NCBI RefSeq assembly: GCF_003334355.1
Contig: NZ_QOWP01000043.1
Direction: 5' to 3' (one strand)
Source: Escherichia coli
GTDB lineage: Bacteria; Pseudomonadota; Gammaproteobacteria; Enterobacterales; Enterobacteriaceae
DNA: 26,147 nt
The translations under genes were made by a program, and so were the position numbers. The notes under the pieces were generated by a model, which searched no databases, was not told the origin of the DNA, and was given only the letters and a program-made list of their open reading frames with translations. Below are positions 3,583 through 4,477 of the stretch, piece after piece (the stretch's first letter is position 1; the number at the start of each line of letters is the position of its first letter).

Positions 3583-4125
3583 ATGTACCAGCTAAAGATA
3601 ACCATCCGAGACAGCAAACCACCTATATGGCGGCGTGTGCTGGTTCCAGAGCAAATCCCCTTTAGTAAACTTCATGCCGTGATCCAGTTAGCTTTTGGCT
3701 GGAATGACGAACACCTGTATATGTTCGAGAAAGGGCGTAAAGGTGATCCAGGTAGCGAGTATCGCGTATGGGGTGAGGATGAAAGCATGGGTAACGCGGC
3801 AATCACGCCACTATGGGCGGCGCTCCAGAATGAGGGTGACAAGCTGGTTTACACGTATGACTTTGGCGACTGGTGGGATTGCGTCATTGTGCTGGAGAAG
3901 CAAACACACGATACGAGTAATCAGCCCATTAGCTGCCTGCGTGGGAAAGGCACCACCCCGGCGGAAAACTCAGGCGGCTTGCATGGTTACAATGAATTGC
4001 TATTACAGGCCAGAGAGTCTGATAATCCTGAGCAGGCCGAGATCCACAATTTCCTGATGCTGGATATTGAACGCCGGGTTTACGACCTGAGCCGCATCAA
4101 CGACAGATTGCAGGCTATTAACTGA
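3583..4125 (+). CDS. pRiA4b ORF-3-like family protein (PF07929-like), 180 aa
   Basis: Translation carries the motifs I associate with this family: KPPIWRRVLVP ... LHAVIQLAFGWNDEHLYMF ... YTYDFGDWWDCVIVLE. Normal E. coli-like GC content. Confidence 0.65.
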   Translation: MYQLKITIRDSKPPIWRRVLVPEQIPFSKLHAVIQLAFGWNDEHLYMFEKGRKGDPGSEYRVWGEDESMGNAAITPLWAALQNEGDKLVYTYDFGDWWDCVIVLEKQTHDTSNQPISCLRGKGTTPAENSGGLHGYNELLLQARESDNPEQAEIHNFLMLDIERRVYDLSRINDRLQAIN

Positions 4126-4477
4126 CCCGCATGTATTCACCTGATATTGCGTTATCAGCGCCGCCAGTATCGCGCATAACAGCACAATGACCGGGTAAAC
4201 CGTAACGCACGACCGTTGCGTTAGTCTCACCGCCGCGCCGTATCTGGCGCGATTCATACACTGTCACCCGCTCAAGCAGTCCACCAGCAACCATGCTTTC
4301 CAGTGTGCGCCGGGTTGATTCGAGCTGGTGACGCTTATCGAACGACACCATGCCATGAAGCAGGTAGGCCACACCCGACACATCGAACGGCGGCGCACCA
4401 ATCTCACCAGTCACCCATTCGAGGTTATCTGGTTCAAAGTAGCTAAGTATCTCTTTTTTGCGGCTGGTCATTCTCAT
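4118..4477 (-). CDS. Hypothetical protein (119 aa), possible winged-helix fold
   Basis: ORF with AAGGAA upstream of the ATG; convergent with the pRiA4b-like gene and overlapping its 3' end by 8 bp (4118..4125). No family recognised. Confidence 0.4.
   Translation of the reverse strand: MRMTSRKKEILSYFEPDNLEWVTGEIGAPPFDVSGVAYLLHGMVSFDKRHQLESTRRTLESMVAGGLLERVTVYESRQIRRGGETNATVVRYGLPGHCAVMRDTGGADNAISGEYMRVS

Follow-up and report, generated by a model that had tools for sequence, protein, structure and literature searches.

The closest described relative of the locus considered here is EcCIMP1 of Escherichia coli MP1, a PICI that has been experimentally induced and mobilised by its helper phage Kapi1. 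The cycle of EcCIMP1 is reported to have alpA as its master regulator, and helper-phage (Kapi1) superinfection immunity has also been reported for it (Pick, Stadel & Raivio, 2025, ISME J; PMC11773190); neither of the two genes analysed here, termed pRiA4b and p119, is mentioned in that paper or its supplements. PICIs are known to carry defence genes close to their ends or attachment site (PMC10085698). The family of the first gene, PF07929 (PRiA4_ORF3), has been described as supplying the passenger ORF that ISAzba1-type Mutator-like transposons have in common, several of these transposons carrying a recombinase too (Guerillot et al., 2014; PMC3942029). Full-text literature searches for pRiA4b, MM3350, PF07929 and PRiA4_ORF3 found no functional study.

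The window analysed here is a stretch of 26,147 nucleotides of E. coli DNA (assembly GCF_003334355.1, contig NZ_QOWP01000043.1). Comparison with EcCIMP1 and other relatives indicates that the pRiA4b and p119 genes probably represent the attR-proximal end of an EcCIMP1-type PICI at thrW, and not a dedicated two-gene system. The features that bear on this reading are as follows.

2698 to 2979, plus strand: PerC/ANR-like regulator gene, 93 aa; first gene of the terminal block (phrog_994, E=1e-37)
3277 to 3462, plus strand: p61, small backbone gene, 61 aa, C-terminus ...YQWKKPAPRR (phrog_7271, E=2e-6)
3520 to 3549, plus strand: promoter-like site TTTACA-18-TATCGT in the 120-bp spacer 5' of the pRiA4b gene (consensus scan only)
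3583 to 4125, plus strand: pRiA4b ORF-3 / MM3350-like gene, 180 aa; apparently facultative cargo occupying the p61/p119 slot
4118 to 4125, no strand assigned: stretch of 8 bp shared by both genes at their 3' ends, TTAACTGA, read from the sequence
4118 to 4477, minus strand: p119 gene, 119 aa, encoding an orphan protein modelled as a winged helix; apparent backbone gene and last gene before attR
4491 to 4522, no strand assigned: 32-bp near-perfect palindrome, CTTATTGTATGATAG-TG-CTATCCCACAATAAG on the p119 strand; candidate p119 operator
4641 to 4667, minus strand: terminator-like hairpin and T run between attR and p119 (consensus scan only)
4679 to 4696, plus strand: attR core, an 18-nt copy of the thrW (tRNA-Thr) 3' end with one base deleted, aligned to thrW/attL of MP1

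The attR core marks p119 as the last gene of the island; the preliminary description had placed the pair in the right half of an island. Beyond attR lie a truncated yagP' gene and paoDCBA. Positions 1–4696 form the right-hand part of the island; the window begins inside it, and an IS3-family element abuts position 79. ARAGORN detected no intact tRNA gene in the window. In the syntenic MP1 island the integrase gene stands next to tRNA-Thr and this, together with the attR core at 4679–4696, is indicative of integration at a tRNA attachment site.

The PerC-p61-pRiA4b-p119 block is 99.9% identical to that of E. coli H10407, in which the gene order is PerC, the 61-aa protein p61, the pRiA4b ORF-3 protein, the 119-aa protein, the truncated LysR gene yagP' and paoDCBA. 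Further to the left the H10407 island encodes a tyrosine integrase, an HTH regulator, an AntA/AntB antirepressor, a DUF4222 protein, an Ash-family protein and a DUF5906 primase. The MP1 island runs in the same way from tRNA-Thr (thrW) through int, HTH, antA/B, DUF4222, ash and primase genes to PerC, p61, pRiA4b and p119. An AlpA-type regulator, an antirepressor, Ash and a primase/replicase, with no lysis genes, are found in the near-identical H10407 and MP1 islands, the window itself holding the right-hand 4.7 kb only. The cargo of both of these islands, however, includes a gene annotated 'phage DNA ejection protein', which is a pseudogene in H10407.

EcCIMP1 occupies the same site as the window island (thrW, in the proA to yagU region) and has the same backbone gene families. 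Its PerC, p61 and pRiA4b accessions are those of the window, whereas its p119 is another allele, ~98% identical, and its middle cargo consists of DNA-ejection-protein and lytic-transglycosylase genes where the window island has a cassette encoding 361-aa and 145-aa proteins. The PerC-like protein of the window is 100% identical to H10407 WP_000617443.1, which is the accession of the EcCIMP1 PerC-family gene in MP1; against the ANR model NF033650 it scores 31.1 bits, just under the cut-off of 32.

The pRiA4b and p119 genes are convergent and their 3' ends overlap by 8 bp, as stated in the preliminary description and confirmed by the ORF coordinates and the stop codons. In the ORF list and the raw sequence the pRiA4b TGA lies at 4123–4125 and the p119 TAA (TTA on the plus strand) at 4118–4120, the former being the reverse complement of p119's last codons (GTC AGT TAA). 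RefSeq annotation of both genes is identical in H10407 and MP1. Pairwise dN/dS values of 0.09–0.24 for p119 and 0.04–0.12 for pRiA4b point to purifying selection on both. It had been considered that the 119-aa ORF might have no homologues or coding signal; its dismissal as non-coding or spurious is ruled out by these values, by 539 homologous clusters and by a confident winged-helix model.

Relatives of the island suggest how the overlap came about. A TTAA[C/T]TGA junction is present in all loci with both genes; moreover, in L046, a relative without pRiA4b, a sequence resembling the p119 C-terminus has TTAACTGA at the corresponding place, and DNA homology with the pRiA4b-less loci L006 and L008 begins exactly at the p119 stop codon. 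The L046 junction suggests that the cargo ORF extends to the very edge of the slot, which would account for the 8-bp overlap. In relatives p119 adjoins p61 just as closely, so that the geometry belongs to the slot and not to the pRiA4b/p119 pair. The overlap thus appears to be a by-product of compact packing at the cargo slot, and the antisense arrangement is probably of low importance.

A consensus scan found no terminator-like site between 3583 and 4477, and hence none separating the two genes. With overlapping 3' ends and no intervening terminator, they have the layout of a convergent-transcription pair. Antisense read-through into the opposite gene is plausible because no terminator-like hairpin lies between them, and on this sequence-level evidence such transcription is possible in either gene. 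The two genes do not constitute a same-strand, one-operon module, being convergent and each with its own upstream region. Promoter-like sites are no more numerous in the region than in shuffled sequences, so the site at 3520–3549 is a weak indication of a pRiA4b promoter; for p119 the scan recognised no promoter. The hairpin at 4641–4667 would block read-through from the host flank into p119. No match to Rfam was found within positions 1–5400.

The pRiA4b protein matches PF07929 with E=1.2e-42 (146 bits; residues 2–170 against model positions 3–167 of 173), which bears out its earlier identification as a pRiA4b ORF3-like protein, a poorly characterised mobile-element passenger. It has the MM3350 fold (as in PDB 2I1S), with a beta-grasp core and a helical tail, and displays the family motifs PPIWRR (N-terminal), YDFGDxW and P...GG...GY. 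Indeed, the near- or fully invariant columns in a 35-sequence alignment are P13, W16, R17 and R18, followed by Y92, D93, F94, G95, D96 and W98, and by P126, G131, G132, G135 and Y136. A match to SNAPC3 is weak, the other matches are to generic ubiquitin-like beta-grasp domains, and no catalytic or effector domain could be recognised in the protein.

The structural prototype of PF07929, MM3350 of Methanosarcina mazei, is archaeal and chromosomal, whereas the pRiA4b gene described here is located in an enterobacterial phage satellite. Members of the family are present on 2794 of 72,556 plasmid records, mostly conjugative; on one of these, an IncX3 plasmid, the flanking genes encode recombinases and an ISKra4-like transposase. 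The family is also represented in a few phages. The passengers of ISAzba1/ISKra4-type Mutator-like transposons and the IS1096 'TnpR' belong to the same Pfam family, are non-essential and lie near a site-specific recombinase, as here. These transposon copies are, however, only ~23–35% identical, and are found with DDE transposases and serine recombinases rather than in a tyrosine-integrase satellite.

HMM and structure searches therefore give pRiA4b both a family and a fold (PF07929, MM3350), and p119 a fold, the winged helix, with no named family. The preliminary description had likewise recognised no family for the 119-aa protein, and there is no match to it in Pfam (even at E<=10), NCBIfam, PHROG or PADLOC. 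The confident model displays a winged helix-turn-helix; by sequence p119 falls into no named wHTH family, and Foldseek retrieved nothing from the PDB at E<=0.001. The 539 homologous clusters come from a collection of 5.8 billion proteins and reduce to 77 representatives at 50% identity, with every named source in the Enterobacterales. The family of p119, an orphan one of winged-helix type, is restricted to islands of the Enterobacterales. As a candidate autoregulator it can be likened to winged-helix repressors of the ArsR/MarR type, which are autoregulated via a dyad operator over their own promoter; in comparison with these it has an extra N-terminal helix pair, a disordered C-terminal tail and no evident ligand-sensing features.

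The p119 gene always adjoins att/int and is always preceded by the 32-bp palindrome. A divergent integrase gene lies 350–480 bp upstream of p119 in loci L003, L008, L014, L042, L045, L066 and L077. In a circular 22.9-kb Klebsiella pneumoniae record, pRiA4b and p119 face each other and are followed by a 442-bp gap and by int reading away, which is the order that circularisation of the window island would give. In the circular form of the island, p119 would be divergent from the integrase gene across attP.

The palindrome consists of two 15-nt arms, 87% complementary, separated by a 2-nt spacer; it ends 13 nt 5' of the p119 ATG and overlaps the Shine-Dalgarno sequence. It is kept in 27 of 27 diverse loci that were aligned, including Proteus loci with only 56–60% protein identity, and the DNA beyond it, further upstream, shows no relation between loci. 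Folded as RNA, the palindrome is barely better than shuffled sequences (z=-1.6). Among its symmetric positions only one varies: 11 of 26 sequences have it unpaired and just one shows compensation. No covariation was detected, 438 of 500 shuffles scoring as high. The reading of the palindrome as an RNA hairpin or riboregulator was dropped in favour of a DNA operator on the basis of this lack of covariation, the weak folding and the absence of an Rfam match.

Since RNA covariation is absent, the palindrome seems to be conserved as two DNA half-sites, a pattern expected for the operator of a dimeric protein. No other copy is present in the window or in the H10407 island, including the vicinity of int, and no half-site is found near the pRiA4b promoter region. 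Because p119 is the palindrome's only constant partner, autoregulation by p119 is the simplest explanation. From the modelled fold and the dyad we infer that the palindrome is a putative operator of p119 itself, which may bind it as a dimer over its own ribosome-binding region and so regulate its own expression.

The question of whether pRiA4b and p119 go together was addressed with p119 loci from 100,044 species genomes (26 loci) and IMG/VR (46 loci), and from annotated E. coli and plasmid records; the 67 with enough sequence downstream of p119 were informative. In this sample, which was gathered by p119 peptide patterns seeded with 11 closer sequences and is redundant for E. coli, the neighbour of p119 is a convergent pRiA4b gene in 20 of the 67 loci, leaving 47 in which p119 occurs without it. 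p61 converges directly on p119 in ten loci (+6 to +121 bp), and in many others its homologues lie on the far side of other cargo. In 11 of 67 the next gene runs in the same direction as p119 and encodes a ~146-aa protein whose N-terminus is RHH-like, other cargo comes first in 13 of 67, and a further 13 of 67 have a different arrangement, mostly of the Proteus type with the integrase gene in tandem upstream. When p119 sequences are clustered at 90% identity, pRiA4b accompanies 3 of the 26 clusters and is absent from 23. Shimwellia loci L006 and L008 encode p119 proteins 91–92% identical to that of the window and have no pRiA4b, and ~150 further E. coli genomes, O157:H7 among them, carry a 60–80%-identical p119 without it.

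Within E. coli the close alleles are almost always found together, p119 in 378 and pRiA4b in 371–375 of 5426 genomes. Having been gathered by way of p119, the loci tell little of the frequency of p119-less members in the enterobacterial pRiA4b subfamily; from the pRiA4b side three contexts are covered, one from Serratia and two, nearly identical, from K. variicola. In K. variicola a 76%-identical pRiA4b faces a 68%-identical p119 at the identical TTAACTGA junction; an IS element has cut this p119 at its 5' end and pRiA4b is intact. The Serratia homologue of pRiA4b, 77% identical, has Phd/Doc as its neighbour at the end of an island and no p119. At least 99% identity to the window is seen for pRiA4b in 295 E. 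coli genomes and for the p119 segment in 37, and strain PSS-13, with its island at dinD, has a pRiA4b protein identical to that of the window and a p119 region 94.7% identical. The differing identity bands on either side of the junction and the mosaicism of PSS-13 suggest recombination at the pRiA4b/p119 junction, and the near-perfect linkage in E. coli, together with the diverged K. variicola pair that keeps the junction, suggests a long co-inheritance of the two genes.

The preliminary description had called for a check of gene neighbourhoods and would have been contradicted had the pair been absent elsewhere; the pair does recur, with the same junction, in Enterobacter, Lonsdalea and Klebsiella as well as in ~370 genomes of E. 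coli. The functional unit that it implied is not supported, as each gene occurs without the other and the two do not co-occur across the phylogenetic range of the family. A functional module would be one in which p119 controls or neutralises pRiA4b, as in a toxin-antitoxin or regulator-effector system, or in which transcription across the overlap makes expression mutually exclusive. Such a link would also explain the long co-inheritance, and it is consistent with the E. coli linkage (~371–378 genomes each), with the same junction in islands at thrW and dinD and in K. variicola, with the lack of a terminator-like site between the genes, and with the toxin-antitoxin-like character of other occupants of the same slot. 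However, p119 lacks pRiA4b in most loci and lineages, Serratia, plasmids and transposons provide instances of pRiA4b with no p119, and p119 is likewise tail-to-tail with p61 where pRiA4b is absent. Moreover, the sole p119-type palindrome is upstream of p119 itself, and the K. variicola pRiA4b has stayed intact beside a disrupted p119, which argues against p119 as an essential antidote. We consider a functional module unlikely.

The same comparisons bear on the idea that pRiA4b assists site-specific recombination or transposition, perhaps with p119 as a directionality or architectural factor acting at att with the integrase. Most sibling islands with the same backbone differ in carrying pRiA4b, which is therefore not required for integration or excision; the integrases of L008 and L003 are closely related (71% identical), yet pRiA4b carriage differs among siblings. 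The report of alpA as master regulator of EcCIMP1 and the weak or generic nature of the SNAPC3 and beta-grasp matches also argue against a recombination role, which seems to us quite improbable.

The slot between p61 and p119, which to our knowledge has not been described before, has varied contents. Where pRiA4b is absent the slot is either empty or filled by cargo of another kind: a homologue of SoFic (PADLOC, E=1.6e-46), antitoxin pairs that are SocA/Panacea-like (two cases), an ImmA/IrrE-like gene and its partner, a set of three with a TIGR04255 protein among them, or an RHH-like gene. In this respect it resembles the ends of PICIs and the P4 psu-int hotspot: it is likewise fixed between backbone genes next to att, and unrelated toxin-antitoxin- or defence-like cargo alternates between close islands. 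It differs from those defence hotspots in that the occupant here, pRiA4b, is without a demonstrated defence function.

This setting gives some appeal to a third alternative, namely that the island carries pRiA4b, singly or jointly with p119, as a determinant of phage defence or anti-defence. The SoFic, SocA-like and ImmA-like genes that fill the slot in relatives, the reported placement of PICI defence genes near ends and attachment sites, the frequency of the family as a passenger of plasmids, transposons and a few phages, and the unexplained superinfection immunity of EcCIMP1 can all be cited for it. The argument is nevertheless one of guilt by location only; the pRiA4b protein has no homology to any PADLOC model and no recognisable catalytic or effector domain, and several other uncharacterised EcCIMP1 genes could account for the immunity phenotype. 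Known defence systems were searched for and rejected, none of the six island proteins having a PADLOC match. A defence or anti-defence role is accordingly held to be distinctly unlikely, and the specific proposal that pRiA4b, possibly with p119, determines the helper-phage superinfection immunity reported for EcCIMP1 very unlikely indeed.

The reading of both genes as the attR-proximal end of an EcCIMP1-type PICI can be put together as follows. The pRiA4b gene would be an optional passenger with its own upstream spacer, placed between the 3' ends of p61 and p119. The cargo ORF would reach the backbone gene and use a TGA inside p119's last two codons, giving the 8-bp overlap. Transcripts would probably extend some way into the opposite gene, as a side effect of tight packing and not as a designed switch. 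From the comparative sequence data we conclude that p119 behaves as a backbone gene and pRiA4b as long-lived but facultative cargo, the two not forming an obligate pair; pRiA4b would thus appear to have a passenger role.

Overall, the locus is judged to be an ordinary mobile-element architecture, in which neither the regulator family nor the passenger gene has been studied. A large group of enterobacterial satellites has the p119 family at its att-proximal end, and together with the dyad this family could be used as a boundary marker; p119 and the invariant 32-bp dyad also constitute a testable candidate regulator-operator pair. The p61/p119 slot, in which toxin-antitoxin- and defence-like genes are swapped, is a good place to seek new phage-defence genes. 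The widespread PF07929 family gains a genetically tractable context, namely EcCIMP1 in MP1, for which the helper phage is known and an immunity phenotype awaits explanation. Were pRiA4b to prove responsible for that immunity, PF07929 would represent a new family of conflict genes (defence or anti-defence), and its presence on so many satellites, transposons and conjugative plasmids would be accounted for.

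The right-hand part of the PICI at thrW and its surroundings in the window hold the following further features:

1-78: the terminal part of an IS629/IS1203-like element of the IS3 family, recognised by a sequence match over the first 78-83 nt
675-2210, minus strand: a two-gene cassette encoding 361-aa and 145-aa proteins, called 'the cassette' in the preliminary description
4594-4609 and 4704-4719: a 16-nt inverted repeat with arms ATATGGGGGTACTTTT and AAGAGTTACCCCATAT, which are 81% complementary
4821-5363, minus strand: a truncated LysR-type gene (yagP'), directly outside attR

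Homology to the sibling islands begins only at position 79, which indicates an IS insertion in the island immediately to the left of the cassette; the IS629/IS1203-like element itself occurs thousands of times, both chromosomally and on plasmids. The cassette is variable island cargo. Its position in the sibling islands of strains H10407 and MP1 is taken by other genes, including a phage DNA-ejection-protein gene and, in MP1, also a lytic transglycosylase gene, and the version seen in the window is common to 41 E. coli genomes. The 361-aa protein is matched by phrog_7651 (E=4e-139) and gives a weak Pfam hint of a TubZ-C-like domain (E=0.05), while phrog_8552 matches the 145-aa protein, which comes second after it. 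Neither protein was matched in PADLOC or NCBIfam.

The arms of the inverted repeat lie on either side of the attR core, one within the island and the other in the flank, and a tandem GGGGGTA motif is present at about 4598-4616. These elements could be integrase-binding sites or the remnant of an older att site. The truncation of yagP' falls at the island boundary, and in H10407 this gene is annotated as a pseudogene without its N-terminus. Further into the flank, G+C falls from the 55-60% of the pao operon to 33-45% at 10000-11500 and 18000-22000. Judging by synteny with H10407, these segments are probably the counterparts of the yagU/ykgJ and ecp fimbrial regions.

The PerC/ANR-like protein (window 2698-2979) is identical to WP_000617443.1 of H10407, and the PerC-family gene of the MP1 island carries the same accession. 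In EcCIMP1, the island of MP1, the PerC-family gene EcCIMP1_025 is reported to silence, rather than activate, LEE1 expression in Citrobacter rodentium (Pick et al., PMC11773190). An E. coli O157:H7 island (NZ_CP076232.1, 164975-175240), which also carries primase, SSB and ProQ/FinO genes, encodes a 65% identical homologue of the 119-aa winged-helix protein (p119). Here the p119 gene is not terminal and is flanked on both sides by PerC-family genes, which might be the pch genes.

In many relatives (loci L009, L010, L012, L020, L047, L050-L055 and L057) the next gene 3' of p119 has the same orientation and encodes a protein of ∼ 146-170 aa (for example L020:6432-6872); it may be the usual operon partner of p119. 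This protein begins MSKSLSVTFRVPAEL, and its N-terminus appears RHH-like by eye; Pfam, NCBIfam and PHROG gave no match. H10407 has a copy of the gene, 63% identical, located past PerC.

Finally, a p119 homologue is encoded on a circular 22,859 bp Klebsiella pneumoniae record ('plasmid unnamed1', NZ_CP033626.1), classed there as a non-mobilizable plasmid. Its genes are ordered as in a satellite that has circularised (int, HTH, antA/B, DUF4222 ... tape measure protein ... pRiA4b, p119). It may be a PICI-like element, excised or episomal, and not a plasmid.
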